Source of the DNA: Candidatus Ruthturnera sp.
Lineage (GTDB): Bacteria; Pseudomonadota; Gammaproteobacteria; PS1; Pseudothioglobaceae
Direction: 5' to 3'
Length of the DNA stretch: 41,746 nucleotides
NCBI GenBank assembly: GCA_018648985.1
Contig: JABGOT010000145.1
Coordinates: forward strand, 1-41,746
The notes beneath the pieces are model-generated. The model was not told the DNA's origin. It saw only the letters and a program-made list of their open reading frames with translations, and did not search any database. The position numbers were made by a program, and so were the translations under genes. Shown here in pieces: positions 10,520 to 29,740 of this stretch (position 1 is the first letter of the stretch; each line of letters starts with the position of its first letter).

Positions 10520-13500
10520 ATGCCACATCATCATCACGACGATTTATCGAAAGACGAAAACATAACGCATGATTTAATTACTGAGGCCTATAAAGATCAC
10601 GAACTCGGTATTGCGGGTAAGCTAACCAAAGCCTTTATAACCTCACCGCTCTCAATCATTCTATTCTTCGCTATGTTAGGCGCAGGTATTATTGGTTTAA
10701 TCTCCACACCAAGACAAGAAGACCCGCAGATCTCGGTACCAATGATCGACCTCTTTGTTGAGTATCCTGGCGCCTCTTCTGACGAAGTTGCTAATATCGT
10801 AGTCAAGCCATTAGAGCGCTTAATGTCACATATTCTAGGTGTGAAGCATGTCTATTCAGTCAGTGACAAGAGCCAAGGTATTATCACAGTTGAGTTTGAT
10901 GTAGGTCAAGAGATGAACGCCTCTATTATCAAGGTGCGTGACAAAATGCTCGCCAACCTTGACTTTATGCCGCCAGGCGTTAGAAGCCCCTTAATCAAAC
11001 CTAAAGAGATTGACGACGTACCTATTATTAATTTAACGCTTTGGTCTAAGTCACTTGATGATGGCCAGCTACGTTCGTTAGGTTTAGAGTTGTTACAACA
11101 ACTTGAAAAGGTTAAAGACACCAACAATGGTTTTGTGGTTGGTGGCCGAAAAGAAATCTTCCATATCGATGCTTATCCCGGGCGTTTAGCTGGTTACGGC
11201 GTTTCAATTCAACAAATCGCAGGCACTGTCGGCTCGGCCAATGTCAGTGATCATACTGGTGATATTGAACTCAATGGCTATAAGATGGAGGTCTATTCAG
11301 GTGACTTCTTCAAAAAAGTTGAAGACATTGAAAACTTAGTAATTGCTGTTAATGACGGCAGGCCAGTTTATGTACGTGATGTAGCTGATGTCTACTACGC
11401 CCCAGAAGAAACAGACCATATGGTTAATTACTACACAGGTAAAGCCAATAAAACTGACGTAAAAGCTAGCGGTGAGCAAGCAGTCACGATCGCCATTGCA
11501 AAAAAATTCGGCACCAATGGTGTTGCAGTTGCAGAAAATATTTTAGCCAGAGTAGAGGAGCTTAAAGGCCGACTCATTCCAGACAATGTTGAGGTTAGCG
11601 TTACCAGGAACTACGGTAAATCTGCCAAAGATAAAGTCAATGCATTACTTAAAAAGCTCTTCATTGCCACAGGCGCAGTAACGTTACTGGTTTGGTTTGC
11701 ATTAGGCTGGCGTCCTGCGGTTGTGGTAACGCTAGTGATTCCAGTGGTTTTATTAATGACCATCTTCGCAGCTTGGATTTTTGGTATGACCATCGACCGA
11801 GTGAGTTTATTCGCACTGATTTTCTCGATTGGTATTTTGGTAGATGATGCCATTGTTGTGACTGAGAATATATACAGGCGCTGGCTAATAGATAATAAAA
11901 TTACCATTGGAACAGCGATTGACGCAGTAAGAGAAGTAGGCAACCCAACCATTCTAGCAACCTTTACCGTGGTCGCAGCATTGGTACCAATGGCAGCTGT
12001 TAGTGGCATGATGGGGCCTTACATGGCGCCAATTCCAGTCTTAGGTTCAGTGGCTATGATGATATCGCTATTTGCAGCTTTTGTCTTTACACCGTACTTT
12101 ATTATGAAGATTGTGCCACCACTCGGTGTGTTGCACAAAATGCATGAAAAAGAAGAAAAAGAAAGCAAAGTATTGTATGCATTCTTCCATTCTACAATTT
12201 CAAAATTATTTCATATCAAGGCTTACGGTTGGGGCTTTTTAATTACCTTGTTTGTCGCCTTCTTTATGTCAATGTCAATGTTCTACACAACCACAGTGCC
12301 AGTAAAAATGCTGCCATTGGATAATAAGTCAGAATTTGGTGTTGTCTTAGATATGGCAGATGGTACCGCATTGGCAGATACCGCTTCAGCGTTGCATAAA
12401 ATGGCACAAGTATTGCGCAATATGCCAGAAGTAGTTGCGATTCAATCTTACGCAGGTACCGCCAAACCATTTGATTTTAACGGTTTGGTTCGACACTACT
12501 ACCTTAGACAAAACTCATCAGAAGGCGAGCTACAAATTCAGCTAGCTGAAAAAGCAGATCGTAAGCGCTCTAGTCATGAAATTGCATTGGAAGCAAGACA
12601 AATGATCAAGCAAATTGCTGCTGACGCAGGCGCTAACTACGCCGTAGTAGAGATGCCACCAGGCCCACCAGTGTTGCGCCCTGTGGTTGCAGAGGTGTAT
12701 GGCCCAGACAAGGAGACTCGTCGTAAACTAGCCAATGACCTAACTCAGATGTTTAAAGAGTCAGGCACAATGACCGATGTTGATAACTTGATGCGTGACG
12801 AATACCCAGTTATTAATTTCCAAGTAGATACTGAAAAAGCCTCTCGTTTTGGTGTGAGTGTACAAACCATTAAAGAGACGTTAGCAATGGCCATGAGTAG
12901 CTTTAACGTTACCACTATTCGTCTTAAGAACGCATTAGAGCCTTCACGTGTTTGCTTAAAAGTACCATTGTCTAAGCGTTCACAATTGTCATACTTAACA
13001 CAACTGCCAGTCCCTTCTCAGCAGGGTGGTATGATTCCTATTTCTGAGTTGGGCTCGTTTATTTACAAAAAACAAGACGATCTAATCTTCCATAAAGATC
13101 TGGCTGATGTTGAATATGTTTTAGGTGAGCCTATTGGTCGCTTAAGTGCGCCAATTTACGCTATGTTTGGCGTGGATGATTTACTACTTAGATATCAAAC
13201 AGTAGATGGTAAAGAATTACAAGGCGAGTACTTAGGTCCGCCTAAAGATCAAACCGTACCAGGTTTTGAGTGGGCTGGTGAGTGGACAGTAACTTACGAA
13301 ACTTTCCGCGACATGGGTACTGCATTTGGTGTGGCGCTAGTGGTTATTTACATGCTAGTGGTATGGCAGTTTGGTAACTTTATTATCCCTGCGGTAATTA
13401 TGGCGCCAATTCCATTGACGCTCTTAGGTGTTGTACCAGGACACTGGCTATTAGGCGCTGAATTTACAGCCACCTCAATGATTGGCTGGATTGCATTGGC

Positions 13501-14023
13501 CGGTATTATTGTGCGAAACTCCATTCTTTTGGTGGACTTTACCGTGCAAGAATATGCCAAAGGCATGCCATTCTTTGATGCTGTCATTAGCTCTTGCGCA
13601 TCACGTACAAGACCAATTTTGATTACTGCTTTTGCATTGGTAGGCGGCGCAAGCGTTATCTTAACAGACCCTATTTTCCAAGGCATGGCGATTTCATTAT
13701 TGTTCGGTGTGTTGATCTCAACTGTACTAACACTGATTGTAATACCTTTAGGTACGCTATCAGCAGGTGAGGCTTCTTGTCGCAATATTGCAGTTAGTAT
13801 GGGGTTATTGCCAGGTGATGCTGATGCTGATGCAAAATACAATGTAGAAAAAGCAGAGAAGCCTAAAAAGGAAAAATCTGAAAAATCAAGCAAAGATCCA
13901 AAAGAATGGATTAAAGCAGCACTAGGTAAAAAGAAGAAAGCTGACGATGCTGAAAAAGAAACTTCTGAAGAAAAAATAGACACCAACGGTCTACTTAAAA
14001 AAGAAGACAAAAATGATGTTTAG
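10520..14023 (+). CDS. RND superfamily efflux permease (AcrB/CzcA-like), 1167 aa with N-terminal His4 and C-terminal Lys/Glu-rich extension
   Basis: Two-fold architecture: TM1, large periplasmic loop and a TM cluster (aa ~370-530), then a second large loop and second TM cluster (aa ~915-1085). ILVDDAIVVTENI-type TM4 motif. 10-nt gap after the adaptor gene. Confidence 0.9.
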   Translation: MPHHHHDDLSKDENITHDLITEAYKDHELGIAGKLTKAFITSPLSIILFFAMLGAGIIGLISTPRQEDPQISVPMIDLFVEYPGASSDEVANIVVKPLERLMSHILGVKHVYSVSDKSQGIITVEFDVGQEMNASIIKVRDKMLANLDFMPPGVRSPLIKPKEIDDVPIINLTLWSKSLDDGQLRSLGLELLQQLEKVKDTNNGFVVGGRKEIFHIDAYPGRLAGYGVSIQQIAGTVGSANVSDHTGDIELNGYKMEVYSGDFFKKVEDIENLVIAVNDGRPVYVRDVADVYYAPEETDHMVNYYTGKANKTDVKASGEQAVTIAIAKKFGTNGVAVAENILARVEELKGRLIPDNVEVSVTRNYGKSAKDKVNALLKKLFIATGAVTLLVWFALGWRPAVVVTLVIPVVLLMTIFAAWIFGMTIDRVSLFALIFSIGILVDDAIVVTENIYRRWLIDNKITIGTAIDAVREVGNPTILATFTVVAALVPMAAVSGMMGPYMAPIPVLGSVAMMISLFAAFVFTPYFIMKIVPPLGVLHKMHEKEEKESKVLYAFFHSTISKLFHIKAYGWGFLITLFVAFFMSMSMFYTTTVPVKMLPLDNKSEFGVVLDMADGTALADTASALHKMAQVLRNMPEVVAIQSYAGTAKPFDFNGLVRHYYLRQNSSEGELQIQLAEKADRKRSSHEIALEARQMIKQIAADAGANYAVVEMPPGPPVLRPVVAEVYGPDKETRRKLANDLTQMFKESGTMTDVDNLMRDEYPVINFQVDTEKASRFGVSVQTIKETLAMAMSSFNVTTIRLKNALEPSRVCLKVPLSKRSQLSYLTQLPVPSQQGGMIPISELGSFIYKKQDDLIFHKDLADVEYVLGEPIGRLSAPIYAMFGVDDLLLRYQTVDGKELQGEYLGPPKDQTVPGFEWAGEWTVTYETFRDMGTAFGVALVVIYMLVVWQFGNFIIPAVIMAPIPLTLLGVVPGHWLLGAEFTATSMIGWIALAGIIVRNSILLVDFTVQEYAKGMPFFDAVISSCASRTRPILITAFALVGGASVILTDPIFQGMAISLLFGVLISTVLTLIVIPLGTLSAGEASCRNIAVSMGLLPGDADADAKYNVEKAEKPKKEKSEKSSKDPKEWIKAALGKKKKADDAEKETSEEKIDTNGLLKKEDKNDV
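13816..13833 (+). repeat. in-frame hexanucleotide tandem repeat (GATGCT)x2 + GATGCA encoding DADADA at the start of the RND C-terminal tail
   Basis: Read directly: gatgct gatgct gatgca. Confidence 0.9.
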
Positions 14024-15929: not shown

Positions 15930-16003
15930 ATTGGGTAATTTTATCGTCTATTACGGTAGAATAGGGTCACTTTTATATTTTTCAAGCTAAAAGGATACCT
16001 TTA

Positions 16004-17044
16004 ATGCGTCCAGAACAAGTCAGCAAAATCCTCACTCAAGAATTCGAATCTGTTATTCACGGCCACCACACGCCAGTAATGCTTTGGGGTGCGCCAGGTA
16101 TTGGTAAGTCACAAATCATCTCACAAGTGGCTGTTGACCACAACGTACCAATGATTGATATTCGTCTTTCACAGATGGAGCCAAGTGATTTACGTGGCAT
16201 CCCCTTTAAAAACGGTGAACAAGTTGATTGGGCGGTCCCATCATTATTACCTGATGCATCTCGCCATGGTGAGCAGGGCATCTTATTTTTAGATGAGATT
16301 ACTTCAGCACCACCAACAGTTTCCGCAGCAGCATACCAGTTAATTCTAGACCGTCGTTTGGGTGATTATATTGTGCCAGATGGTTGGGTCATTTTTGCTG
16401 CGGGTAACCGCCAAGGCGACCGCGGTGTTACTTACTCGATGCCAGCACCGTTGGCCAATCGTTTTTCTCATTATGAGCTTGATGTCAACCTTGATGATTG
16501 GGCAGCTTGGGCTTATAAAAACAACATTGATGAGCGCATTATTGGTTTCTTACGTTACCGTCCAGAGCATTTGTTTGAGTTTGATCCTGCGCACAATCCG
16601 GTGGCTTTTCCATCACCAAGAACTTGGGAATTCACCCATCGTGCCTTACAAAAATTTGATGACAATCTCAACCTATTTAGACAAGCCGCCAGCGCTTGTG
16701 TCGGCGAAGTTGCCGGTGTTGAGGTTGCTACTTTTATTGAACACCTTGAGGATTTACCAGATCTTGATGCCATCGTTAATGGTGAGTCGGTCTCTATTCC
16801 CGATGCTATTGACCTTCAATACGCCATTTGTTCGGCGCTTGTGGGTAGGGCAATTAGCGTTAAAGACAAAGATAATGCAAAACAAGTTTGGGGCAATATT
16901 CTTAATTTTGCACGCGACTTTCCACAAAAAGAACTCGGCGTTATGCTGGTGTCAGACATGCAGCGTGCAATCGGTGAAGAAATTTTCAGCATTCCTGAGT
17001 TTGCCGATTGGGCCAGCAAAATCGCTGATACGATGTTTGATTAG
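16004..17044 (+). CDS. AAA+ ATPase, MoxR/AAA_5-like single-module (partner of downstream VWA protein)
   Basis: Walker A GAPGIGKS (nt 16088-16111), Walker B ILFLDEIT, AAGN sensor-1-like, PLANRF. AAGGA Shine-Dalgarno 8 nt upstream of ATG. Confidence 0.85.
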   Translation: MRPEQVSKILTQEFESVIHGHHTPVMLWGAPGIGKSQIISQVAVDHNVPMIDIRLSQMEPSDLRGIPFKNGEQVDWAVPSLLPDASRHGEQGILFLDEITSAPPTVSAAAYQLILDRRLGDYIVPDGWVIFAAGNRQGDRGVTYSMPAPLANRFSHYELDVNLDDWAAWAYKNNIDERIIGFLRYRPEHLFEFDPAHNPVAFPSPRTWEFTHRALQKFDDNLNLFRQAASACVGEVAGVEVATFIEHLEDLPDLDAIVNGESVSIPDAIDLQYAICSALVGRAISVKDKDNAKQVWGNILNFARDFPQKELGVMLVSDMQRAIGEEIFSIPEFADWASKIADTMFD

Positions 17045-17052
17045 GATTAACT

Positions 17053-18396
17053 TTGGACAAGTACCCAACTTGGCAAGATGAACCCTTTAAACCTGAGCAA
17101 CAGGTTAGAGTCGTTGGCGAAGACATTGTCCAGCCACAGCAAGACAAAACACTAAGTACTACCGAGCTAGAAGCCATCAAAAACCGTCTAACTAAGGCGC
17201 GTACACAACTCATGCTCGACAAGCCTTTTTTGGGTAATCTAGTATTACGCCTACCTTTAATCGCAGCCGATTCTTGGTGTAAAACCAGCGCTACAGACGC
17301 CAAAAGTTTTTACTACAATCCTGAGTTTGTTGATTCACTTAACAATCATCAAATCAAATTTATTCTTATTCACGAAGCCCTACACTGTGCACTTACACAC
17401 TTTGCACGCCGCGGTAATCGCACCAAGCATAAGTGGGATCTTGCCTGTGATTTTGCCATTAACCCACTCTTGGTTAAAGAAGGTTTTCACCCACCGATTG
17501 ATGTGCCAATTTTTCGTCAATACGAAGGCATGATCGCCGAAGAAATCTACCCAATGATTGATGACAACCTTGACCAAGAGCCAATGGATCAACACCTATA
17601 TGATGACAATGCTAACGATGATTCCAAGCAGTCCGATGGCGGACTACGTGAAGACGATCTGCAAAAAGAACAAGAGCAAGAATCCACATCAGACTCTAAA
17701 TCAAACCAAGATAATAAAGCTGGTGCTTCTCAGCTCGCACAACAGCCACCCAAATTACAACCTGATGAAGTGGATAAACTTGCCACACAATGGCAAAAAA
17801 ACCTTGCTTCAAGTGCGCAATTAGCACAGCAAGCTGGCAAACTCGATGGCGAATTTGCCAAACTGATTGATTTCTTTTTACAACCCCAAGTCTCTTGGCA
17901 ATCGCTTTTGGCACAATACATGTCTACCTTTGCCAGAGATGATTTTTCCTATTCGCGCCCATCGCGCCGAGCAGGTGAGGTAATCATGCCATCACTCAGA
18001 TCACACCAGCTTGATATCACCGTAGCAATTGACACCTCTGGCTCGATCTCACAAGAAGAAATTAATGAATTTGTCTCTGAGGTTGGTGCTATCAAGGCCA
18101 ATTTACGTGCTGGCATTTCTTTACTAGCTTGCGACGACACTCTTTCTGAGTATTCACCTTGGCGCTATGAAGCCTGGGAAGAGTTGCAGTTTCCCGCATC
18201 ACTCGGTGGTGGAAAGGGCACTAACTTTAACCCAGTATTTGATCACATCAACACCCAAGATACACCGTCAGATGTACTGATTTACTTTACTGATGCCAAA
18301 GGCAAGTTCCCTGAGTTTGAGCCCGATTATCCAGTTTTGTGGCTTATTAAAGGCAAAGAGCGTGTACCATGGGGCTCTCGTATCCAACTAAATTAA
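17053..18396 (+). CDS. putative metallopeptidase-domain / VWA-domain fusion protein (DUF2201_N + DUF2201-like)
   Basis: LDKPFLGNL...FILIHEALHCALTH with HEALH at nt 17371-17385, then WDLACDFAIN. Acidic/Gln-rich linker at aa ~170-260. C-terminal VWA with MIDAS-like DTSGS at nt 18031-18045, GGGKGTNF and VLIYFTDAKG. Track start is TTG 17053, 8 nt after the ATPase stop, so the start is uncertain. Confidence 0.8.
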   Translation: MDKYPTWQDEPFKPEQQVRVVGEDIVQPQQDKTLSTTELEAIKNRLTKARTQLMLDKPFLGNLVLRLPLIAADSWCKTSATDAKSFYYNPEFVDSLNNHQIKFILIHEALHCALTHFARRGNRTKHKWDLACDFAINPLLVKEGFHPPIDVPIFRQYEGMIAEEIYPMIDDNLDQEPMDQHLYDDNANDDSKQSDGGLREDDLQKEQEQESTSDSKSNQDNKAGASQLAQQPPKLQPDEVDKLATQWQKNLASSAQLAQQAGKLDGEFAKLIDFFLQPQVSWQSLLAQYMSTFARDDFSYSRPSRRAGEVIMPSLRSHQLDITVAIDTSGSISQEEINEFVSEVGAIKANLRAGISLLACDDTLSEYSPWRYEAWEELQFPASLGGGKGTNFNPVFDHINTQDTPSDVLIYFTDAKGKFPEFEPDYPVLWLIKGKERVPWGSRIQLN

Positions 18397-18399
18397 ACC

Positions 18400-18714
18400 A
18401 TGAGAGATTTTTCTGCCATTGAGCTTGATGAATATCTAGAAGACAACCAGCCGTTGCTACTAGATGTGCGTGAACAATGGGAATGGAACAAATGCCATTT
18501 TGAAGATGCTACCTTACTACCCATGGGTCAAATTATGGCAAATATCGACACCCTAGATAAAACCCAAGAAACTGTCATTATTTGTCATCATGGTATTCGC
18601 TCTATGCAGGTAGCGCGTTATTTTGACTCAGTTGGTTTCGAGGATATTATCAATCTACGTGGTGGTATTGATGCTTGGGCCAAGCAAGTCGATAGCTCGA
18701 TGGAATTGTACTAA
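18400..18714 (+). CDS. single-domain rhodanese (thiosulfate sulfurtransferase GlpE-like)
   Basis: 104 aa. LLLDVREQWEW and active-site loop ICHHGIRS, then LRGGIDAW. Starts 3 nt after the VWA gene stop. Confidence 0.85.
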   Translation: MRDFSAIELDEYLEDNQPLLLDVREQWEWNKCHFEDATLLPMGQIMANIDTLDKTQETVIICHHGIRSMQVARYFDSVGFEDIINLRGGIDAWAKQVDSSMELY

Positions 18715-19619
18715 AAGCTGATTTCGAAGAACTCGTTAAATTTCTTTCGTTCTTTTTGAGCCTCGTGTATATCTATTAATTTAAACCTAAGTTTGGTGTT
18801 GGGCTGGCGCTGTGCCAGCTTGGCCAAATCCAATGAAAACACCGTGCCAATTTTTGGATAACCGCCAATACTTGGCGTGTCTTTTAACAAAATAATAGGC
18901 AAACCATCGGTCGCGATCTCCACACTACCATAGCTAATTCCCTCTGATATCATCCGCTCTTTTTTAATGGAAATCGGCGCACCGCTAAGTCGACATCCGG
19001 TTCGGTCATTAGCATTGGTAATAGTGTAATTTTGGTTAAAAAATAAATCTCGTTGATTAATACTAAACTCATTAAATTGATAAGTCGGCAATATTCTTAT
19101 TGTAAGATCTTGATTGTAATTCGGCACATATTTAGGCGGGATAAATCGATAAGTCGCCTCATCAAAACCCTTGCATGGCAACACATCACCTTTAACCAAT
19201 TTAGCACCAATATGCTCACGCAAATTCACTGATCTTGAATCAAACAGTACCGGTGTGTCAAAACCACCTTTAACCGATAAATACGCACGCACACCACTCT
19301 TAGGGATATCCCAGCTGATAATATCACCTTTGTGAATTTGTAAGCCGTGCCATAGTTGCACCGATTGATTGTTAATTTTAAAACCCAGGTCTGCACCCGT
19401 GACAGCGATAAACGTATCTATCTGCGCCTCAAGTACCAACCCACCAAAAGTAATCTCAACCACCGCATCGTTAAAATCATTATGAAGCAGATGGTTGCCC
19501 CAAGTATAAGCGTGCTCATCCATCACCCCTGATTGACTCATACCATGCTCGCCATGGTTGAGGCGCCCGTAGTCTTGTACGGTGGATAAAAAGCTAGATT
19601 TAATGACCTTAAAACTCAC
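18711..19619 (-). CDS. pxpC: 5-oxoprolinase subunit C (PxpC; allophanate hydrolase subunit 2 / KipA family)
   Basis: 302 aa. VQDYGR, DRTGCRL, PSIGGYPKIGTV motifs. 4-nt overlap with pxpB. Confidence 0.88.
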   Translation of the reverse strand: MSFKVIKSSFLSTVQDYGRLNHGEHGMSQSGVMDEHAYTWGNHLLHNDFNDAVVEITFGGLVLEAQIDTFIAVTGADLGFKINNQSVQLWHGLQIHKGDIISWDIPKSGVRAYLSVKGGFDTPVLFDSRSVNLREHIGAKLVKGDVLPCKGFDEATYRFIPPKYVPNYNQDLTIRILPTYQFNEFSINQRDLFFNQNYTITNANDRTGCRLSGAPISIKKERMISEGISYGSVEIATDGLPIILLKDTPSIGGYPKIGTVFSLDLAKLAQRQPNTKLRFKLIDIHEAQKERKKFNEFFEISF

Positions 19620-20299
19620 AGATTGCCGCCATTTTTCAAATACTCATCACGCGTGATTGAGTAAAATTTCACCTTATCGCCAACACGGAATTTATCAATA
19701 TTCTCAGGATTTTCTAAAGACAAATCTAACAATGTCCTCCCTACAATATTCCAACCGCCGGATGAATCAGTAGGGTAGACGGCAGTTTGACTCTCAGCGA
19801 TACCAACACTACCAGCAGGAATTTTAATTCTAGGTGTGGCCAAGCGTGGTGTTTGTATGCGCTTATCTACTTCACCCAAAAAAGCAAACACCGGACTAAA
19901 GCCAATCGCATAAACCAAATATTCTTGTGAGGTATGAATCTCGATAAAGGAGGCTAAATCCAGATTTTTCTCAGATAATAATCGCTCAAGATCTAAACCA
20001 ACCTCTACACCGTAATAAACCGGTATATGGGTTGTTTGAGCTTCTATACCAGCACCACTAGAAGCTTGCTGAGTTAAAAGACCTTCTACTTTATCAAAAA
20101 ACGCCTGAAAACTGATTTTGTTTAAATCATAACTCACATGCAGCGAAGTGTAAGAGGGGATAGCGTCAATAACGACATCACTCAGCGTGTTTTTTAGCTG
20201 ATTTGCAAAATTTCCGATTTTTTTAGGCAGCGAAGCATCGATCTTATCGCCAAAATAAATCAGTATTGCATTTTCACCCGCTGAAACAATATTATGCAT
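19616..20299 (-). CDS. pxpB: 5-oxoprolinase subunit B (PxpB; KipI family)
   Basis: 227 aa. IPVYYG, PAGSVGIAESQTAVYP, SSGGWNIVGRT motifs. Confidence 0.88.
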   Translation of the reverse strand: MHNIVSAGENAILIYFGDKIDASLPKKIGNFANQLKNTLSDVVIDAIPSYTSLHVSYDLNKISFQAFFDKVEGLLTQQASSGAGIEAQTTHIPVYYGVEVGLDLERLLSEKNLDLASFIEIHTSQEYLVYAIGFSPVFAFLGEVDKRIQTPRLATPRIKIPAGSVGIAESQTAVYPTDSSGGWNIVGRTLLDLSLENPENIDKFRVGDKVKFYSITRDEYLKNGGNL

Positions 20300-20978
20300 T
20301 ATTAAGCCGTTTTAACGCCTCTACAGAGGCTAAATTATCACTATGGAAACAAATTGTATCGATTTTAAAAGATTTTTCACTTAAAAAACGCTGATATTGT
20401 TCAATAATGGCGTTTTCATTAGTTAATACTGCACCTTTTTCACCTCTAGAAATCATGTGCGAACCAACATACCCTCTATCTGCAAAAACTTCATGCAAAA
20501 ACAATCCATTTGCATTATTTCCGAAATTTTTAAAATGCTCCTCATTACCCGCCTGAACTACCAAAGCTAAATTCATGTCTAATTTATCAATAACCTGGCA
20601 CATGACTTCTAGCACAGGCTGCTGGTGAGTCATATCGTGATACAACGCGCCATGAGGCTTGATGTATTTAAGGGTTGCACCATTGTCAAGGCAAAGATTT
20701 TGAAAATGATAAACTTGATCATAAATCAATTTGTACAAAGCTTTATCATCTAAATTATGATTTATACGGCCAAAGTTGGTTTTATCTGCATAGCTTGGGT
20801 GTGCACCAATTTTTACATTATTTTTCTTGGCAAGCTTAATAGTTGCAACCATACTTGCATCATCACCTGCATGCCCACCACAGGCAATATTAGCCATATT
20901 AATCAGTGGCATAATTTCATTGTCCGGACTAGGTGTTAGACACTCGCCAAGATCACAATTAATTAGCTTTTTACTCAC
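20292..20978 (-). CDS. pxpA: 5-oxoprolinase subunit A (PxpA; LamB/YcsF family)
   Basis: INCDLGE, NIACGGHAGD, IGAHPSYADKTNFGR, IKPHGALY motifs. Confidence 0.9.
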   Translation of the reverse strand: MSKKLINCDLGECLTPSPDNEIMPLINMANIACGGHAGDDASMVATIKLAKKNNVKIGAHPSYADKTNFGRINHNLDDKALYKLIYDQVYHFQNLCLDNGATLKYIKPHGALYHDMTHQQPVLEVMCQVIDKLDMNLALVVQAGNEEHFKNFGNNANGLFLHEVFADRGYVGSHMISRGEKGAVLTNENAIIEQYQRFLSEKSFKIDTICFHSDNLASVEALKRLNNA

Positions 20979-21697: not shown

Positions 21698-22642
21698 TTG
21701 CTTATGATTGATACAATAAAAGCTGAAATTCAAAAAATTATTATCGGTCAAGAGAATTTGGTCGATAACTTATTAATAGGTTTGATCACTGGCGGACATA
21801 TCTTGGTAGAGAGTGTGCCAGGATTAGCAAAAACCACCGCAATTAATACGTTGGCTAAAGCCTTAGGCATTGATTTTAAACGGATTCAATTTACCCCTGA
21901 TTTGTTACCCAGTGATTTAACTGGCTCACAAATCTACAACCCAAAAAGTGGCGAATTTAGTATTAAACAAGGGCCGATTTTTACCAACTTATTATTAGCA
22001 GACGAGATTAACCGTTCACCTGCGAAGGTGCAATCAGCGTTACTTGAAGTGATGGCTGAGAAGCAAGTAACCATTGCTAACGAAAGTTTTAAAATCGATG
22101 GGCCTTTTTTGGTGATGGCGACACAAAACCCAGTAGAGCAAGAAGGAACCTATCAATTACCAGAAGCGCAACTTGATCGCTTTATGCTAAAAACCGTACT
22201 GGATTACAACACCATTGATGAAGAGTTAGAAGTGGTTAACAGAGTCGCTGTTAGTGGGTTTGACACCGTGAATCAAGTGGCTAATATGGATGATATAGAA
22301 GCGCTTCGCTCTAATTTCAAACAGGTTCACATGGATGAAGCTGTTAAGCAATACATACTCAAAATTATTTTTGCGACACGCTATCCACAAAAATATGGTT
22401 TAAGTGAAATACAAGATTTGATTGACTTTGGCGCTAGCCCCAGAGGTAGTATCGATTTATTTAAAGCCAGCTGCGCCAAGGCACTGATACGAGGCAATGA
22501 TTTTGCAACGCCGCTTGATGTTGCTAGCGTGGTGACAGAGGTCTTACAACATCGTATTGTGCTCAGCTATCAAGCGCAGGCAGATAATATTAGCGCACAA
22601 TCAGTTATCCAAAAAATACTCAAGGTGATAAAAGCACCGTAA
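21698..22642 (+). CDS. moxR: MoxR-family AAA+ ATPase (first gene of Bat-type module)
   Basis: IIGQENLV, VESVPGLAKTT (Walker A), LLADEINRSPAKVQSALLEVM (Walker B), VMATQNPVEQEGTYQLPEAQLDRF. Track start is TTG 21698; ATG at 21704 is more likely. Confidence 0.92.
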   Translation: MLMIDTIKAEIQKIIIGQENLVDNLLIGLITGGHILVESVPGLAKTTAINTLAKALGIDFKRIQFTPDLLPSDLTGSQIYNPKSGEFSIKQGPIFTNLLLADEINRSPAKVQSALLEVMAEKQVTIANESFKIDGPFLVMATQNPVEQEGTYQLPEAQLDRFMLKTVLDYNTIDEELEVVNRVAVSGFDTVNQVANMDDIEALRSNFKQVHMDEAVKQYILKIIFATRYPQKYGLSEIQDLIDFGASPRGSIDLFKASCAKALIRGNDFATPLDVASVVTEVLQHRIVLSYQAQADNISAQSVIQKILKVIKAP

Positions 22643-22650
22643 ACATCGCC

Positions 22651-23463
22651 ATGCTAGCTCAAGAGATACTACTACGCGCTAAGAAGAATGTTTTCACCAA
22701 CAAATCGGCCGGGGAATTATCAAAAATACGTGGAGAGGGGTTAGATTTTTGTGAGATTCGCCCGTACGAGCCAGGTGATGATATTCGTAAAATTAACTTC
22801 ACTGCCAGTGGTAAAACCGGTGAGTTACAAACCAATATCTTTAACGAAAATAAGCAAATCAATGTAGTGATTTGTATTATGTTGTCAAGCAGTTTGCACT
22901 TTGGTAGTCAGTGTTTAAAGAGTGAAACAATCGCTCAAATTATTGCTTTATTGGGCTGCTCATCCATCAAGCAACACAATCAAACACAGTTGGTGTTCTT
23001 TTCAAAAAATGAACAACAGCTGTTTCGTTTTAATAATACGAGTGACGTGCTTCATGCGATTGAAGCCATACTATCGTGGGATTTGTTAAAAACAAAGCCT
23101 GACTTTCAAGCGCTTAATGATTACCTACTACAACAGCAAAAATCACTGGTATTTGTTATTGGTGATTTTTATCAACAGGATGATTACTCGCTGATTGCTC
23201 ACAAGAATCAAATGAACGCCTTGGTGGTGCGAGACAGACTAGAAGAAATGCCAAATTTTGCTACAGAGTTAGATCTGGTCAATGCAGAAGACGGCAATAC
23301 CACTGAAGCCAGTATGAATAAAAAATTAGCGACAAAGTACCAAACAAAGCTAAACGCTCAGGACGACAAGCTGTTTTCTCATTTTGCCAAGCATGGTATC
23401 AATGTTGGCAAACTTTACACCAGTGATGATGCCTTTATCAAGTTGTCTCAAATCCTACGCTGA
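22651..23463 (+). CDS. DUF58 domain protein (MoxR-associated, degenerate VWA-like)
   Basis: IRGEGLDFCEIRPYEPGDDIRKINFTASGKTGELQTNIF is the DUF58 signature. Standard position after moxR. Confidence 0.85.
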   Translation: MLAQEILLRAKKNVFTNKSAGELSKIRGEGLDFCEIRPYEPGDDIRKINFTASGKTGELQTNIFNENKQINVVICIMLSSSLHFGSQCLKSETIAQIIALLGCSSIKQHNQTQLVFFSKNEQQLFRFNNTSDVLHAIEAILSWDLLKTKPDFQALNDYLLQQQKSLVFVIGDFYQQDDYSLIAHKNQMNALVVRDRLEEMPNFATELDLVNAEDGNTTEASMNKKLATKYQTKLNAQDDKLFSHFAKHGINVGKLYTSDDAFIKLSQILR

Positions 23464-23819
23464 TGAGTAATTTAAAAGACATTAAGCCCATTGTTAGCAT
23501 TGCAGATGATTCGTTGAGTTATTTGCTTATGGTTATTGCTGTTTTATTAATAGCTGTCTTTTTTATAAGGAAAATTATTAAATCTAGGAAAAAGAATGAC
23601 AAGCAAGTGGCTATTGAGAAGCTGCAAAAACTTGATTTTTCTGAGAGTAAATCGGTTGCTTATGGTTTTAAAAAATATGCAGAGGTATTATGCAATAGTG
23701 ATAACAAGGCTCAATTTAAACAAATAAATAATGACTTAGAAAAATATAAATACAAGAAGTATGTAGATGATCTAGACCCAATATTGATACAACAAATCAA
23801 GAGCTTTATTCATGTTTAG
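23463..23819 (+). CDS. small single-pass membrane protein (DUF4381-like slot of Bat operons)
   Basis: 118 aa with one TM (LSYLLMVIAVLLIAVFFI) followed by a basic stretch. ATG overlaps DUF58 stop (TGATG). Assignment by position only. Confidence 0.5.
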   Translation: MSNLKDIKPIVSIADDSLSYLLMVIAVLLIAVFFIRKIIKSRKKNDKQVAIEKLQKLDFSESKSVAYGFKKYAEVLCNSDNKAQFKQINNDLEKYKYKKYVDDLDPILIQQIKSFIHV

Positions 23820-24705
23820 CTTTGAATACCCTTATGTTTTATTGCTGCTTGTCTTGGTGGTGGTGTGTATTGTGTTTTGCAAAGAGAAAAAGCGTGCCAT
23901 TTATTTCCCCCACACTGAATTATTAACCAGTCTAGTAAAATCTAAACAAATACTGCTTAATACGCTTAGAGTGCTTATTCTTGGCCTATTAGTTGTTGGG
24001 CTTTCAAGCCCAATCAAAACCGAACAAATCATATTAGACAACACTAAGGGTTATGAAATTTCCCTAATTTTAGATGCCTCTGGCTCAATGAAGCGTTTTG
24101 ATAAATTTAAAATTGTTAAAGAAATCATGGTTGATTTTATCTCAAAGCGCAAAACTGATAAATTGGCGCTGAGTGTTTTTGCAGATTTTGCCTATACGGT
24201 TGTGCCCCTTACCTATGACAAGAAAAGTGTTATTAAAATGCTAGATAATATCGAAATTGGTGTTGCCGGCAGGCGGAAAACTGCGCTGTATGAGGCTTTA
24301 TTTTTAAGCTCGAAACTGTTTAATAATTCTAAGTCAAAAGAAAGGATTGCTATTTTACTCACTGATGGCAAAGACAATACTAACAGCGTGCCACTTGATA
24401 TGGCGCTTGAGCGCGCCAAAGATAACAAAATTAAAGTTTACACCGTTGCTGTAGGCGATAAAAGAGACTACAACGCACAGGTATTAAAATACATTGCAAA
24501 TAGCACAGGCGCTAAATTCTTCTCGGCCAATAGTCGTGAAAGTATTCAAAATATTTATAAGCAAATTAATCAGTTAGAAAAAAGCAAAATAAATATTAGC
24601 AAATACGATAAAAAAACTTACTATTTTCATTACCCACTAGGCCTAGCATTAGTGCTTTTATTGATTTATTTTTGGCGGAAAAACACATGGGTTTTGAACA
24701 AGTAG
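23812..24705 (+). CDS. batA: VWA domain membrane protein BatA
   Basis: Two N-terminal TM segments. MIDAS DASGSM, LLTDGKDN, VYTVAVG. C-terminal TM. Confidence 0.85.
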   Translation: MFSFEYPYVLLLLVLVVVCIVFCKEKKRAIYFPHTELLTSLVKSKQILLNTLRVLILGLLVVGLSSPIKTEQIILDNTKGYEISLILDASGSMKRFDKFKIVKEIMVDFISKRKTDKLALSVFADFAYTVVPLTYDKKSVIKMLDNIEIGVAGRRKTALYEALFLSSKLFNNSKSKERIAILLTDGKDNTNSVPLDMALERAKDNKIKVYTVAVGDKRDYNAQVLKYIANSTGAKFFSANSRESIQNIYKQINQLEKSKINISKYDKKTYYFHYPLGLALVLLLIYFWRKNTWVLNK

Positions 24706-25637
24706 AACTACTCTATCTAACCATTCCAGTGGTTTTGCTGTGGTTTTTTATTCACAGTAAGAATAATAGCATTGAAGCTTTATTTTCAGCTGAAGTGTTG
24801 GAAAAAATCAGCCTCAATAACCACAAGATATCAACCAAAATACGCCTTAGATTACTGCTATTAAGCATGATATTGATTCTAATTGCACTCAGCAAACCAA
24901 CACTTGAAAGTGGTGAAATAAAGGTAAATAAACGTCTAAGTGATTTGGTGGTGGCGATTGATATGTCAAAATCAATGCTGGCTAATGATATCTACCCTAA
25001 TCGGTTTGAGTTTGCAAAAAACAAACTACTGAATAGTTTTGATGGCATTAAAAACACACGCATTGCAATTTTAGGATTTGCCAATCAAGCCTTTTTAATT
25101 TCCCCCTTAACAGATGATTTAAGCAGCCTTAAATTCTTAATAAAAAATCTTTACTTAGACAGTATCAGTCTAACAGGTACCAACATACTTAATATTCTAC
25201 AATCATCCAACGATCTGTTTGGTGGCGCTTTAAACAAGCAGGTATTATTGTTAACCGATGGTGGTGACAACGACAACTTTGATAAAGAAATTGATTATGC
25301 AAACGAACACAATATTCAGGTTTTTATATTTGATATTACCAGTGAGCGGGGCAGTAGTATTCAAACCGAAGAGGGTGCTTTGGAAGATGCGTATGGAAAC
25401 CTTGTGATTGTTAGAGAAAATCTAAATATTAAGAATCTAGCCAATCAAACGCAAGGGAAGTATCTGAAGTACTCATTAAATAACGATGATTTATCAAAAT
25501 TCATTAATACCTTTAAAAGACTTAGTAGCAGCAAGAACATTAGTATTACTCAAAAACAACAACTGTTTTATTACCCATTGATATTGGCTTTGATCTTGTT
25601 GTTTTCTGCATTTTTCTCATTACCAAAAAAATCATGA
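24672..25637 (+). CDS. batB: VWA domain membrane protein BatB
   Basis: N-terminal TMs. MIDAS AIDMSKSM, LLTDGGDN, VFIFDI. C-terminal TM. Track start is a TTG; ATG at 24687 is the alternative. Confidence 0.85.
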   Translation: MAEKHMGFEQVELLYLTIPVVLLWFFIHSKNNSIEALFSAEVLEKISLNNHKISTKIRLRLLLLSMILILIALSKPTLESGEIKVNKRLSDLVVAIDMSKSMLANDIYPNRFEFAKNKLLNSFDGIKNTRIAILGFANQAFLISPLTDDLSSLKFLIKNLYLDSISLTGTNILNILQSSNDLFGGALNKQVLLLTDGGDNDNFDKEIDYANEHNIQVFIFDITSERGSSIQTEEGALEDAYGNLVIVRENLNIKNLANQTQGKYLKYSLNNDDLSKFINTFKRLSSSKNISITQKQQLFYYPLILALILLFSAFFSLPKKS

Positions 25638-26227
25638 GATTTATTTTCCTATTACTGCTGTCAATAAACACACAAGCAGGGTTGTTTGACTTTGTTAGTA
25701 TTCATCAGGCTAATAAAGCTTATGAAAACAAGGATTACCAGCTAGCTGCAGAAAAGTTTGATAATATTAACAATGATGCTGCACGTTTAAACCAGGCAAA
25801 CAGCTTATATAAGCAAGGTTTGTATAAGCAAGCATTGAAAAAATACCAAAGTGTTAAGCGAGAAGACTTAGCCTTTGACCGTTTGTATAATTCTGGTAAT
25901 GCCTATGCTAAATCGGGCAAAATTAACGAAGCAATTGACAGCTATGAGAAAGCACTAAAATTACAAAAAGACAAAGATGCGTTGTTTAACCTAGAGCTAC
26001 TCAAGAAGCAAAAAAGACGGAAAATATCAGACACAAAACAGAAAAATAAAAAACACAGAAAACAAAAAAATAAGAAAAAGAAAAAATCTAAAAGCAAGCA
26101 ACAGCAAAAAGAAAAGCTCAACAAAATTAAACAGCAACGATGGGAAAAAGCGCTTAATAAAAAACTTAGAACCTTAATGATTCCACTGACTAAACCGCAA
26201 AATGATAATGAACAAAATCCTTGGTAA
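25634..26227 (+). CDS. batC: TPR-repeat protein BatC with Lys-rich C-terminal tail
   Basis: Signal/anchor MRFIFLLLLSINTQA. TPR-like repeats (ANKAYENKDYQLAAEKF, ANSLYKQGLYKQALKKY, GNAYAKSGKINEAIDSYEKALKL). ATGA overlap with batB. Confidence 0.7.
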   Translation: MRFIFLLLLSINTQAGLFDFVSIHQANKAYENKDYQLAAEKFDNINNDAARLNQANSLYKQGLYKQALKKYQSVKREDLAFDRLYNSGNAYAKSGKINEAIDSYEKALKLQKDKDALFNLELLKKQKRRKISDTKQKNKKHRKQKNKKKKKSKSKQQQKEKLNKIKQQRWEKALNKKLRTLMIPLTKPQNDNEQNPW

Positions 26228-27629
26228 TTTACTCTTTTTAATGAGTGCACCAATTTTTGCACTGAGCACGGCAAGTGTTAATCAAACTTGGTTTTATCCG
26301 GGCGATCAAATCATCCTAACGTTGAGCTCTGATGGTGATAAAGTTAGTTTTCCTTCTCTAAATAATATTTCAGGGAGCCCTGTTTTATATACCAGTAATT
26401 CGCAGAAAATTAGCATTGTTAATAACAAGCGCTCTAAACAAAGTAGTAAGTCGTATATTTTCAAACCCGCTAAAAGCTTAAGCATTCCAGCTTACACGCT
26501 GATGGTGGATGGAGATAAGCAAAGCACTCGAGCAATTGAAATAATGCTAAAAAAGCCATCGCAAGCTAAGGCAGGTGATGACTATATTTTACAAATGAAA
26601 GCTGATAAACAAACATTTTTCTTGGGTGATGAAATCAATCTAAAAGTAATCTTTAAAGAAAAAAAATCACTCACATCCAATAGTCCGGTTAGCATCGCCA
26701 TGCCAGAGGTGAAAGATTTGTTGTTTATAAAAAATCAAAAATCCACTCAAAGCACTGATGACAATTACAACATTCACACACTTAGCTACCGACTGAGTGC
26801 TGATAATTTTGGCACGTTTAACATCCCAAGTGCAGTGGCTAGTATTGGTAATCAAAATAATAATATATTTGGTGATTTTTCGACTACTAAAATAAAAAAA
26901 ATCCACTCAAACCCATTAACATTAACCGTCAAACCTTTGCCAGATGCATTAAGGGTTTTTGGTGATTTCAATATTAAAGCCAGCATTGACAAAACCCAAG
27001 CCACACAAGGAAAGGCCGTTAATTTGACGGTTGCGATTCATGGCAAGGGCAATTTTGAAGACATCCAGAAGTTTAGCCTTGATATTGAAGGGACTACCAT
27101 TTACAGCGATGAGGCCGAGTTTAGCTACAATCAATGGCAGCAAAAATTCGCCATTGTTGGTGGGCAGGATTTTGTGATACCCAGTTTTGAGTTTAACTAC
27201 TTTGACAAAATAACCCAAAGTAAAAAACGCATTGCAACCAAGCCGATTAGTATTCAAATTAAAAGTGAAAAAGGCGTGCAAAAGTTAATCAAAAAAATAG
27301 ATAAAAAGCCGTCAAACATTAATGATAATGCGCCAACTAACAATTTAAAATACTACTACCTATTGCTAGGCATTGCCATTGGCACTTTCATCAGTATTTT
27401 GTTTGTTGTACTTAAAAATAAACAACCAAGTAAAGACAGAAGTTTAGTTAACCAAATCAAACTTGCTAGGGGTGATAAGGCTTTGTTTGATTTGTTATTA
27501 CCACTTAATATGCTTAGTTTGGAAACCGTATTGCAACAATTAGAGGCTAATATTTATAAAAATGCCCAACATAAAATTAGAAAAAAGGACATTATTAATG
27601 CCATCAAATTTGAACATAAAATTAACTGA
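26202..27629 (+). CDS. batD: BatD (oxygen-tolerance family) protein
   Basis: 475 aa. Signal peptide, long beta-rich periplasmic region, single C-terminal TM ([21 protein letters not shown]) and cytoplasmic tail. Follows batC. Confidence 0.7.
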
Positions 27630-28647
27630 ATACAGCCATGGTCAAGGCTGTGGTTGTAAGATTTCACCTAAAGTATTAGATACAATTTTAGAGTCATCTT
27701 TAGATGAATTTATAGACCCTAATCTACTGGTTGGCAATGCCTCGCGTGATGATGCCGCTGTGTATGATCTGGGCAATGGTGAGGCGGTAATTAGCACCAC
27801 TGATTTCTTTATGCCGATTGTGGATGACCCATTTACCTTTGGACGTATTGCTGCCACCAATGCGATTAGTGATATTTACGCGATGGGTGGCTCACCGATT
27901 ATGGCAATTGCTATCTTTGGCTGGCCATTAGACAAGCTACCACCTGAAGTTGGTCAACAAGTGATTGAAGGTGGACGTAGTGTGTGTGCTGATGCAGGCA
28001 TATCCTTAGCAGGTGGGCATAGTATTGATGCACCAGAGCCAATCTTTGGTTTGGCTGTAACTGGTCGCGTGGCTATCAAACATCTTAAGGAAAATTCAAA
28101 AGCGCAAGTAGGGGATAAGATTTACCTAACCAAACCTCTGGGCATTGGCATACTAACCACAGCGCAAAAGCAAAAGAAAATCACCAAAGAAGATGAGACC
28201 CGTGCGATTGATACCATGTGTCAGCTGAATGATATCGGCTCTAAGCTAGCGAAGATTGACGGTATTAACGCGATTACCGATGTTACTGGCTTTGGCTTAG
28301 GTGGGCATTTATCTGAAGTCTGTTTAGGCTCAGATGTAGCCGCTGTGATTGATTACAATAAAGTACCAACACTGCCCAATATTAAAGATTATTTGGCTAA
28401 TGGCTGCTCGCCTGGCGGTGCACAGCGTAACTTTGACAGCTATGGACACAACCTTAGCAAAATGGAAGCCGAGGTGCAATCTATTATTTGTGACCCACAA
28501 ACCAGTGGTGGATTACTAATTATGGTGTCAAGCGCTGCGAAAAATGAATTTGATCAAATGATGACAGATGCAGGGTTTGAGTTAGAAGCTATTGGCGAGA
28601 TTGTTAAGCCTAACAGTCAATCAGCATTAGTGCAAATCAATGTCTAG
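27598..28647 (+). CDS. selD: selenide, water dikinase (selenophosphate synthetase), Cys-type
   Basis: [20 protein letters not shown]-terminal glycine-rich loop (Cys, no TGA), then DDAAVY and TTDFF. I prefer ATG 27598 (MPSNLN...); the track ORF starts at 27562. Either start overlaps the batD 3' end. Confidence 0.93.
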
Positions 28648-29740
28648 CGAATTAACTCAGATAGACGATTTTACTCAACTGTTTATTGGCGACACACCAC
28701 TGATTGATACTCGTGCGCCGATAGAATTTGACCAGGGTGCTTTTCCATATACAACTAGCTTGCCACTAATGAGTGATAAAGAGCGCGAGTTGGTAGGTAC
28801 TTGTTATAAAAACAAGGGTCAAGAAAAAGCGATTGAACTTGGTCATGAATTAGTTCAAGGAGAAGTTAAACAAGAGCGATTAGATACGTGGCTTGAATTT
28901 ATCAAAAACAACCCAAATGGGGCGCTTTATTGCTTTCGTGGAGGAATGCGTAGCCAAATCACTCAACAGTGGATTTATGAGGCTTCTGGGATTAACTATC
29001 CACGTATCAAAGGTGGATACAAAGCACTACGTCGATTTTTGATTGATGAAACTGATCGAATCATGGGTCAAGTTACTCCGATTGTGATTGGTGGGCAAAC
29101 TGGCTGTGGTAAGACATTATTACTTGATCAGCTTAAAGATACGATTGATCTTGAGGGTTTGGCTAATCATCGTGGCTCTGCCTTTGGCAATACCACCACG
29201 CCACAACCAACGCAAATTAACTTTGAAAACACCTTAGCAATTGAGCTGATTAAAAAACAAGCGAACTCTCGTTTGGTATTTGAAGATGAAGGATCAAACG
29301 TAGGAACAGTACATATCCCGCAATGCGTGCAGGACAAAACATCTCAGACAGAGTTGATCTTGCTTGAAGCCAGTGTTGCTGAACGCCTAGAGGTGAGTAT
29401 GGATGCGTATGTGATCAATATGCAGCAAGATTTCATTACCCAAGATACTACCAATGGTTTTGATAATTTTAGCAATTATTGGCTGAATAGCTTAGAAAAA
29501 ATACAAAGGCGTTTAGGTTTAGAGCGATACAAAAGTCTATTGCAGCTGGTTAATAGTGCGCTTGTAAAATACAAGGAGCAGGGCGACCCTGAAGGTTTTT
29601 ATCCTGTGGTAGAAGAGCTACTAGTGGGTTATTACGACCCGATGTATGATTATCAAATTCAAAAAAAGATGGGTCGAGTTATATTTAAGGGCAATGCTGA
29701 CGAAGTGTTAAGCTACCTTAATGATCGATCAATCGCTTAA
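28640..29740 (+). CDS. selU: tRNA 2-selenouridine synthase (SelU/MnmH/YbbB)
   Basis: Rhodanese domain [16 protein letters not shown]...CFRGGMRS. P-loop GGQTGCGKT. 8-nt overlap with selD. Confidence 0.9.

Follow-up and report, generated by a model that had tools for sequence, protein, structure and literature searches.

A chromosomal AAA+ ATPase-DUF2201 gene pair and its rhodanese neighbour in Candidatus Ruthturnera sp.

Do three closely spaced genes make up a single biochemical machine, and on what might such a machine act? The question is raised by a locus on contig JABGOT010000145.1 of Candidatus Ruthturnera sp. (assembly GCA_018648985.1), of which positions 1 to 41,746, the whole stretch of DNA analysed, are referred to here as the window. 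The three genes, g1, g2 and g3, encode an AAA+ ATPase, a fusion of a zincin-type metallopeptidase domain with a VWA domain, and a rhodanese; they are co-oriented on the plus strand with intergenic gaps of 8 nt (g1-g2) and 3 nt (g2-g3), as an earlier note on this DNA had reported and as the open reading frames (ORFs) confirm. With their length and their thousands of homologues, these ORFs lie well outside what chance would produce. That note had taken the three genes as one unit; the present analysis splits a two-gene core, g1 and g2, from a lineage-specific rhodanese passenger. The best explanation overall for this core, to which we give a probability of roughly 0.55, is a two-component, ATP-driven machine for remodelling and proteolysis, targeted by the metal ion-dependent adhesion site (MIDAS) of its VWA domain and with a client likely to be found in the physiology of sulfur or iron oxidisers.

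The two-gene core

One genome per GTDB species was scanned with 12 close g2 sequences, and the best 80 of at least 595 loci, a set biased to the closest relatives of the query, were retained; their ORFs were called and clustered together with those of SUP05 loci fetched earlier and of the window (85 loci). In 81 of these 85 loci g1 immediately precedes g2, three of the other four being contig ends, so that 81 of 82 informative loci carry the pair, locus L061 being the sole true case without g1. The pairing recurs on the Synechocystis plasmid pSYSA, where sll7028 adjoins a MoxR gene, and in the N4-like Acinetobacter phage nACB1, in which a pair of the g1/g2 type lies one gene apart, beside helicase and DNA polymerase genes. 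The pairing is thus real and syntenic, as had been proposed, and g1 and g2 are a genuine two-gene system. Clustering of all the ORFs of the 85 loci rendered no universal third gene. The pair had been described as one known only as domains of unknown function with no assigned biochemistry, and this holds: no experimental work on the DUF2201/ATPase family, including any on peptide-bond hydrolysis, was found in the searchable literature.

By its sequence, the g1 product is an AAA+ ATPase with a single module and belongs to the MoxR/midasin (AAA_5) clade. It matches Pfam AAA_5 over residues 24-140 (33.1 bits against a gathering cut-off of 22) and, over its full length, the phage family phrog_1297 'ATPase' (E 2e-97). 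Walker A (GAPGIGKS) occupies residues 29-36 and Walker B (ILFLDE) residues 93-98. In an alignment of 27 sequences that include phage and plasmid homologues, G29, P31, G32, G34, K35, S36, D97, N135, R153 and R206 are invariant, with N135, R153 and R206 as candidates for sensor 1, the Arg finger and sensor 2. A profile of 27 orthologues finds the AAA modules of Midasin/Rea1 as its best match (E 9e-26), followed by CbbQ (6e-5) and NorQ (2e-3).

The g2 product matches both DUF2201 families above their gathering thresholds and in the family order, PF13203 DUF2201_N with 149.4 bits (cut-off 23.2; E 2e-43) and PF09967 DUF2201 with 76.2 bits (cut-off 26.4; E 3e-21), as well as phrog_1314 over its full length (E 7e-86); no NCBIfam model matches it. 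An AlphaFold2 model built with a 57-sequence alignment has predicted local distance difference test (pLDDT) values of 80-94 in the N-terminal domain (35-175) and of 72-90 in the VWA domain (320-447), with values below 50 at residues 185-225. These last residues are disordered and belong to an acidic, Gln-rich stretch with 15 Q and 13 D in the 90 residues 176-265. The HEALH motif sits in helix 98-113, which is confidently modelled.

Conservation within the orthologous group points to strong purifying selection on the zincin motif and the MIDAS. In 85 g2 orthologues, H107, H111, C112, H116, W128, C132, D133 and N137 are each present in 85/85; at position 108 (E108), 82 have Glu and 3 have Asp. 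No variation occurs at the five MIDAS positions, either in these 85 or in 58 diverse members of the family. The N-terminal domain resembles, in the model, a minimal zincin fold, for which Foldseek against the PDB gives selecase (4qhi) as the nearest solved structure, with a template-modelling (TM) score of 0.43 on the target and 24% identity; the C-terminal part finds integrin I-domains, ArnB VWA2 and the CLCA1 VWA domain (target TM ca. 0.5). Profile matches of g2 to selecase, minigluzincin and M48 peptidases are marginal (E 0.02-0.04). Sequence and fold searches of the PDB match separate domains only, with no full-length solved homologue.

The features of g1 and g2 on which the earlier note relied, that is, the AAA_5-type ATPase with intact Walker motifs and, in g2, the HEALH motif, the WDLACDFAIN segment, the linker and the DTSGS of the MIDAS, are all found where it had placed them (Table 1). 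Its peptidase reading depended on how the HExxH region folds and on a third metal ligand. A zincin-like fold is indeed modelled, with HEALH on a helix; for the third zinc ligand, both H116 (85/85 orthologues, 58/58 diverse members) and D133 (85/85 and 56/58) are candidates on conservation grounds.

Table 1. Features of the locus and of its surroundings in the window; residues are numbered within each protein.
Feature	Position (nt)	Strand	Residues	Remarks
g1	16004-17044	+	346 aa	AAA+ ATPase
g2	17053-18396	+	447 aa	DUF2201 protein; TTG start, AGGA ca. 6 nt upstream
g3	18400-18714	+	104 aa	Single-domain rhodanese
g2 N-terminus			1-34	Disordered; SUP05-specific
g2 zincin-like domain			ca. 35-175	
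g2 linker			ca. 176-235	
g2 helical region			237-295	
g2 VWA domain			ca. 320-447	
Zincin motif HEALHCALTH	17371-17400	+		H107, E108, H111, C112, H116
HEALH	17371-17385	+	107-111	Part of the zincin motif
WDLACDFAIN helix	17434-17463	+	128-137	D133, C132, N137 conserved
MIDAS DTSGS	18031-18045	+	327-331	D327, S329, S331, plus T390 and D414
ybeD-g1 intergenic region	15930-16003	+		Divergent; ybeD (DUF493) on minus strand
AcrB-family efflux pump	10520-14023	+		
pxpC, pxpB, pxpA-like genes	18711-20978	-		CT_A_B, CT_C_D and LamB_YcsF domains
'Aerotolerance' Bat operon	21698-27629	+		MoxR, DUF58, BatA (VWA), BatB (VWA), TPR, BatD
MoxR of the Bat operon	21698-22642			AAA_3, with bpMoxR match
selD and following ORF	27562-29740	+		AIRS/AIRS_C; ORF of 366 aa

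A branch of sulfur and iron oxidisers and its proposed mechanism

Homologues of g2 with 70-100% identity are found in Candidatus Thioglobus and in the thiotrophic symbionts that live in the gills of Bathymodiolus and related bivalves. The window accordingly derives from a marine sulfur oxidiser of the SUP05 clade. Outside SUP05, g2 is 47-56% identical, and g1 is 63-73% identical to its orthologues in other orders and classes. Those of the 72 non-SUP05 loci that are named below class level all belong to sulfur or iron lithotroph or phototroph lineages, as do the named proteins (Thiosocius, Thiolapillus, Thiodiazotropha, Sulfuricella and Gallionellaceae). Among these closest orthologues (best 80 of at least 595 loci), the chromosomal branch is confined to lineages of sulfur- and iron-oxidising autotrophs. 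The cataloguing of the domains and one computational mention of the pair were already known; the association of the chromosomal branch with sulfur-oxidiser genomes is newly visible.

The genes around the pair differ from lineage to lineage. In Thiodiazotropha, Sedimenticolaceae, Chromatiaceae and a Solemya symbiont, g2 is directly followed by a gene encoding a BepA-like M48-TPR peptidase, usually with soxX, soxY, soxZ and soxA after it, and in Thiolapillus the start of the M48-TPR gene overlaps the g2 stop; about 28 loci have this gene and soxYZ downstream, with or without soxX and soxA. A gene for a 375-aa protein (c4) follows g2 instead in Thiotrichales, Sulfuricellaceae, Gallionellaceae, Acidiferrobacterales and others, often succeeded by genes for a 178-aa protein (c25) and a glutaredoxin. 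The c4 gene lies on the same strand as g2 with a typical gap of 0-200 nt (1903-3030 in locus L060, 8454-9587 in L026, and ca. 30 other loci), its hosts are gamma- and betaproteobacterial sulfur oxidisers, and its product may be a third component in these lineages. Neither c4 and c25 nor a 186-aa protein (c12) has a Pfam or NCBIfam family or a homologue in the window. On the upstream side, a gene of the Alvin_2107 family, whose model is named 'globule sulfur oxidation protein' (NF049856, E 1.7e-32), lies just before the pair in at least 11 loci of Chromatiales type. Loci of the Sedimenticolaceae/Chromatiaceae type carry an upstream set formed by a DUF6866 gene on the minus strand, a gene for a 186-aa protein and one for an Alvin_2107-family protein of 65-89 aa (L094, 3329-5600; L095, 3644-5627; L038, 4711-5271), and this set of uncharacterised genes seems to be specific to sulfur oxidisers.

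In two Chromatiaceae loci (L054 and L055) the order is Alvin_2107-family gene, g1, g2, M48 peptidase gene, soxY and soxZ. In the published numbering of Allochromatium vinosum, Alvin_2110 is the M48 peptidase, Alvin_2111/2112 are SoxYZ, and Alvin_2108-2112 constitute 'sox cluster one' (PMC3368242). Since the two orders fit, we infer from synteny that Alvin_2108 and Alvin_2109 are the A. vinosum orthologues of g1 and g2. They differ in setting from the SUP05 locus, which has the rhodanese instead of sox or M48 neighbours, and have no assigned function in A. vinosum either. Given the position of the pair inside this cluster of a genetically tractable bacterium, its function can be tested by knockout.

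From the observed gene structure, domain content, motif conservation, synteny and distribution we infer the following mechanism. The g1 product would presumably form a hexameric AAA+ ring of the MoxR/midasin type, and g2 would act as its adaptor and effector, with a MIDAS-complete VWA domain tethered by a long flexible linker to the minimal zincin domain. By analogy with solved MoxR/VWA systems, the VWA domain would dock on or into the g1 ring, while the MIDAS would hold an acidic residue of the client. ATP hydrolysis would then pull the linker and remodel g2 and the MIDAS-bound client, at which point the zinc site would gain access, and the outcome would most likely be the site-specific cleavage or the removal of the bound protein. 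Because the branch is confined to sulfur and iron oxidisers and often lies beside sox and sulfur-globule genes, the most likely client is a cytoplasmic component of their physiology. The rhodanese is a SUP05-family recruit to the operon, and so are, in some members, two further proteins, NnrS and a hemerythrin-domain protein.

Several observations weigh against this explanation. Among the 58 diverse DUF2201 members, H111 and H116 are kept in 58/58 and D133 in 56/58, H107 in 54/58, and E108 in 47/58; ca. 19% thus lack the catalytic Glu, with V, A, L, D, S, C or T instead, and still keep H111, H116 and the MIDAS. It is possible therefore that catalysis is not the essential activity of the family, and the metal site may be non-catalytic in part of it. 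For every member of the family, moreover, hexamer formation, binding of a client by the MIDAS and proteolysis are predictions. With regard to the sulfur link, RNA-seq of A. vinosum on pyrite found Alvin_2110 and soxYZ induced at least 2.4 log2-fold, and Alvin_2108 and Alvin_2109 are not among the genes that changed at least 2 log2-fold. Adjacency to sox genes is limited to genomes of the Chromatiales type, and the products of the sox genes are located in the periplasm, whereas neither g1 nor g2 carries a signal peptide. As the 80 loci are the closest relatives of the SUP05 query, the link could also be phylogenetic inertia. Finally, the gene downstream of g2 varies by lineage (rhodanese, M48-TPR or the 375-aa protein), so that no universal partner hints at the client.

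A bolder version of the proposed mechanism, which we advance only tentatively and consider rather improbable as a whole, would make the pair a new class of ATP-dependent protease, and its chromosomal branch (Alvin_2108/2109 and g1/g2 of SUP05) a hitherto unrecognised accessory factor of dissimilatory sulfur oxidation that matures or turns over a cytoplasmic component of the oxidation of stored sulfur (rDsr type). The protease would be carried on a VWA adaptor, with substrates chosen through capture of an acidic residue by the MIDAS and cleavage gated by the pull of the ATPase on the linker; the rhodanese, hemerythrin and NnrS of SUP05 would be helpers specific to that lineage. Should the proteolytic mechanism be true, it would represent a new architecture among ATP-dependent proteases.

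Variable partners, mobile relatives and alternative readings

The third gene encodes a rhodanese, as had been noted: its product matches Pfam Rhodanese with 64.5 bits (cut-off 22.2; E 1.4e-17), carries the active-site loop C62-H-H-G-I-R of six residues (CHHGIRS, residues 62-68) and has GlpE (1gmx) among its PDB homologues. It resembles GlpE (50 against a cut-off of 102), the C-terminal rhodanese of MoeZ and PspE in NCBIfam, all below cut-off, and since its scores are under the equivalog cut-offs it is assigned to neither GlpE nor PspE. A rhodanese gene follows g2 in 12 of the 13 SUP05-family loci of the clustered set, with a gap of 3-14 nt or a small overlap, and in three more (L089, L092 and L093) that were found starting from the rhodanese; L012 is a SUP05-clade locus without it. 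Past the rhodanese, the DNA differs among SUP05 genomes (pxpC, dUTPase, SpoU or ilvD). Outside SUP05, no rhodanese gene follows g2 at any of the 72 orthologous loci, and the nearest g3 homologues there, 54-58% identical, lie between pcm (protein-isoaspartate methyltransferase) and a tolC-like gene. The g3 gene is therefore a SUP05-specific addition and not a core part of the g1-g2 system; it looks like a relocated housekeeping-type rhodanese that joined the operon in the SUP05 family only. Plain compaction of this genome, which the earlier note had weighed against a functional linkage, falls short as an account of it, since the linkage is not unique to this genome; it is lineage-specific all the same, and no defining part. 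The three-gene unit is not supported, and neither is the persulfide-dependent mechanism derived from it.

Between g1 and g2, several SUP05 genomes, that of the cultured Candidatus Thioglobus autotrophicus among them, carry inserted genes whose stops and starts overlap: in some, the gene for NnrS (393 aa; Pfam E 2e-87) together with one for a hemerythrin-domain protein of 147 aa, in others the hemerythrin gene alone. Inserts with NnrS and/or hemerythrin are found in L002 (6377-8004), L010, L012, L014, L089 (2029-3656) and L003 (5561-6004), and are missing from the window, L005, L007, L008, L009 and all 72 non-SUP05 loci. The hemerythrin protein shows a faint similarity to the RIC di-iron protein of Fe-S repair (E 1e-3), far under the cut-off. 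At the insert position of L092 there is a 131-aa ORF without a Pfam match.

These partners bear on two readings of the SUP05 operon. According to the first, the three genes would form a persulfide-dependent machine for cofactor maturation or repair, in which sulfane sulfur comes from the rhodanese and a metal-sulfur centre is inserted or repaired by the MoxR/VWA pair, in the manner of CoxD/E. The rhodanese keeps its place in essentially every SUP05 locus though the DNA beyond it differs, its catalytic Cys loop is intact, the invariant C112 and C132 flank the metal site of g2, and hemerythrin and NnrS in the same operon would fit a theme of repair of metal centres or of nitric oxide (NO) damage. 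We consider this reading unlikely nevertheless, given the absence of the rhodanese from the 72 other loci and from L012, the pcm/tolC-like setting of the closest g3 relatives elsewhere, a window without NnrS and hemerythrin, and phage and plasmid relatives of the pair without a sulfurtransferase. The second reading, which we rank somewhat lower, regards the operon as damage control under nitrosative or oxidative stress, g1 and g2 remodelling or clearing NO-damaged metalloproteins together with NnrS, hemerythrin and rhodanese, in a role akin to that of NorQ/NorD. The inserts of Candidatus T. autotrophicus and other SUP05 genomes would suit it, as would the service of NorQ/NorD, itself a MoxR/VWA pair, to NO reductase, but the patchy distribution of these inserts speaks against it, the N-terminal domain of g2 is unrelated to NorD, the match of g1 to NorQ is weak, and no site for an NO regulator was seen upstream of g1, by inspection by eye only.

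It could also be the case that g2 is a non-proteolytic adaptor or a metallochaperone, its HExxH...H...D site delivering a metal or holding the fold, and that the pair is purely a MoxR/VWA chaperone. The looser conservation of E108 and H107 relative to H111, H116, D133 and the MIDAS in the diverse members would agree with this, and the characterised MoxR/VWA systems are all chaperones or insertases, none of them proteases. The orthologous group of the window retains HExxH, however, its fold is nearest to an active minimal peptidase, selecase, and a minority loss of catalytic residues is common among true peptidase families, so that this possibility appears improbable to us, more so than the damage-control reading.

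The wider g2 family is very large, with 18,959 clusters at 50% identity (E <=0.001), and extends to mobile elements, whose members are 22-32% identical to g2. Phage relatives (690 records, 22-30% identical) include those of N4-like, rV5-like and jumbo phages, and Foldseek against BFVD matches full-length phage proteins to the g2 model (E 3e-23). Plasmid relatives (130 records) include one on a conjugative Burkholderia plasmid beside type IV secretion system genes and that on pSYSA, among toxin-antitoxin genes. Phage homologues are widely labelled 'HNH endonuclease' or 'homing endonuclease' (phrog_1314; records H3, H4, H6-H8, H11, H12 and others). The 'HNH endonuclease' label is evidently a mis-annotation propagated in hundreds of phage genomes, the protein being a zincin-VWA fusion, and the proteolytic mechanism, if true, would explain the mislabelled phage pair. 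None of the abundance on phages and plasmids, the jumbo-phage precedent or the tracking of sulfur oxidisers and sox genes by the orthologous group had been mentioned in the earlier note.

The pair of the window is a chromosomal, vertically inherited branch of this family. Its flanks are conserved core genes and its position in the core genome is the same throughout SUP05; no mobile-element genes are found in the flanks, with no integrase, transposase or tRNA gene beside the locus, and the GC content at third codon positions (GC3) of g1-g3 (0.37-0.39) is inside the range of the neighbours (0.28-0.41). Recent horizontal transfer is ruled out by this native GC3 and by the conserved core flanks, and the housekeeping context that the earlier note had held against a conflict system is borne out. 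The view of the pair as a conflict system of mobile-element origin, domesticated or resident, with a peptidase effector and an ATPase gate for defence or counter-defence, is the least probable of the readings considered here, since the phage and plasmid records and the full-length PHROG and BFVD matches that would favour it are set against a PADLOC search without a match of g2 and with marginal P-loop matches of g1, the fixed core position, the native GC3, flanks without integrase, transposase or tRNA, and high conservation instead of rapid diversification, the phage relatives being as distant as given above.

Surroundings of the locus and relation to known systems

The divergent region between ybeD and g1 is probably the promoter and leader of the operon. 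A block kept across SUP05 loci reads GATTTTATC.TCTATTACGGTAGAATA.GG...TTTTCAA.TTTTTCAAG and contains a -10-like TAGAAT, which was not called by a consensus promoter scan; the counts of the promoter and terminator scan were equal to shuffled expectation, hence uninformative. The same SUP05-conserved region holds TATTACGGTAGAAT and a repeated TTTTCAA(n)TTTTTCAAG element directly before the start codon, which may be the site of a regulator. The divergent upstream flank is formed by lipA, lipB and ybeD and, beyond them, an efflux pump of the resistance-nodulation-division (RND) type. The N-terminus of this AcrB-family pump is unusual in being His-rich (MPHHHHDD), and past the ACR_tran domain there is a C-terminal tail of ca. 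90 aa rich in Lys, Glu and Asp.

Downstream, pxpCBA genes of the 5-oxoprolinase type converge on g3, the pxpC stop overlapping that of g3 by 4 nt; the trio is in none of the other SUP05 loci examined at this position, and it looks like a lineage-specific rearrangement or insertion. Beyond it lie a dUTPase gene, the MoxR(AAA_3)-DUF58-BatA-BatB-TPR-BatD operon, selD and nrdAB. The Bat operon, 3 kb downstream, is of the canonical 'aerotolerance' type, so two unrelated MoxR-VWA systems share the window. The 366-aa ORF after selD has no Pfam match; in L093 the gene in this place is annotated as AAA_SelU (tRNA 2-selenouridine synthase), which suggests a selenium-utilisation pair near the rhodanese.

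Several known systems were considered and rejected as a home for the pair. Membership of NorQD, CbbQO or CobST was rejected, the similarity of g1 to CbbQ and NorQ being at the weak P-loop level and g2 having no NCBIfam family. A search of PADLOC-DB v2 for a catalogued anti-phage system rendered no match of g2 or g3 and only P-loop-level matches of g1 (E 1e-4 or weaker), so that the conflict reading stays disfavoured, as the earlier note had it. The vWA-MoxR-VMAP or MoxR-vWA-beta-propeller ternary systems (Kaur et al. 2020, PMC7159879) need an ATPase of the bpMoxR type together with a VMAP or beta-propeller component; g1 has no match to bpMoxR (PF20030) and no third gene is conserved across loci.

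The systems that come closest each share a part of the architecture. NorQ/NorD, which inserts Fe_B into cNOR, and CbbQ/CbbO, a Rubisco activase, combine, like g1/g2, a MoxR-class ATPase with an adjacent VWA/MIDAS partner whose N-terminal domain is joined by a linker to a C-terminal VWA domain, and with the VWA domain docked at the pore they serve as the mechanistic template (PMC13036017, PMC9976466); in cryo-EM structures of NorQD a finger of the VWA domain is in the ATPase pore and the ATPase, driven by ATP, stretches the NorD linker (PMC13036017). NorD and CbbO have no peptidase domain, in contrast to the HExxH-bearing zincin domain of g2, and g1 differs from CbbQ and NorQ in being closer to the Midasin modules and in a C-terminal region of ca. 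170 aa that they lack; nor and cbb genes are absent from the window. Selecase, the minigluzincins and M48 peptidases match the N-terminal domain of g2 in the LAHExxH helix and the surrounding fold, at the level of fold or clan only, and differ in being stand-alone or membrane-bound, with neither a VWA domain nor an ATPase partner. Midasin/Rea1, the best solved-structure match to g1, is likewise an AAA_5-type ATPase. In its work with a MIDAS domain, the client is caught there by an acidic residue and then pulled off. It differs in being a single eukaryotic polypeptide of 4,700-4,900 aa that fuses six AAA modules and includes a MIDAS domain of its own, without a peptidase, and in acting in ribosome biogenesis.

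A further close relative is the MoxR and peptidase-vWA pair noted in group 2.2 jumbo phages, for which a role in virion assembly and processing was proposed (Iyer et al. 2021, PMC7824862). It shares with g1/g2 the same two families over their full length, the same order of zincin, linker and VWA domain, and the same adjacency of ATPase and VWA genes; it differs in its 22-30% identity and in belonging to phage genomes, and in nACB1 the pair lies beside replication genes and not structural genes. Since a chromosomal branch exists, the virion role, itself a proposal made from sequence, cannot apply to the chromosomal copy. MoxR/VWA systems are recognised as ATP-driven remodelling chaperones, and those in which the VWA domain is fused to a peptidase make up a very large branch, present on chromosomes, plasmids and hundreds of phages.

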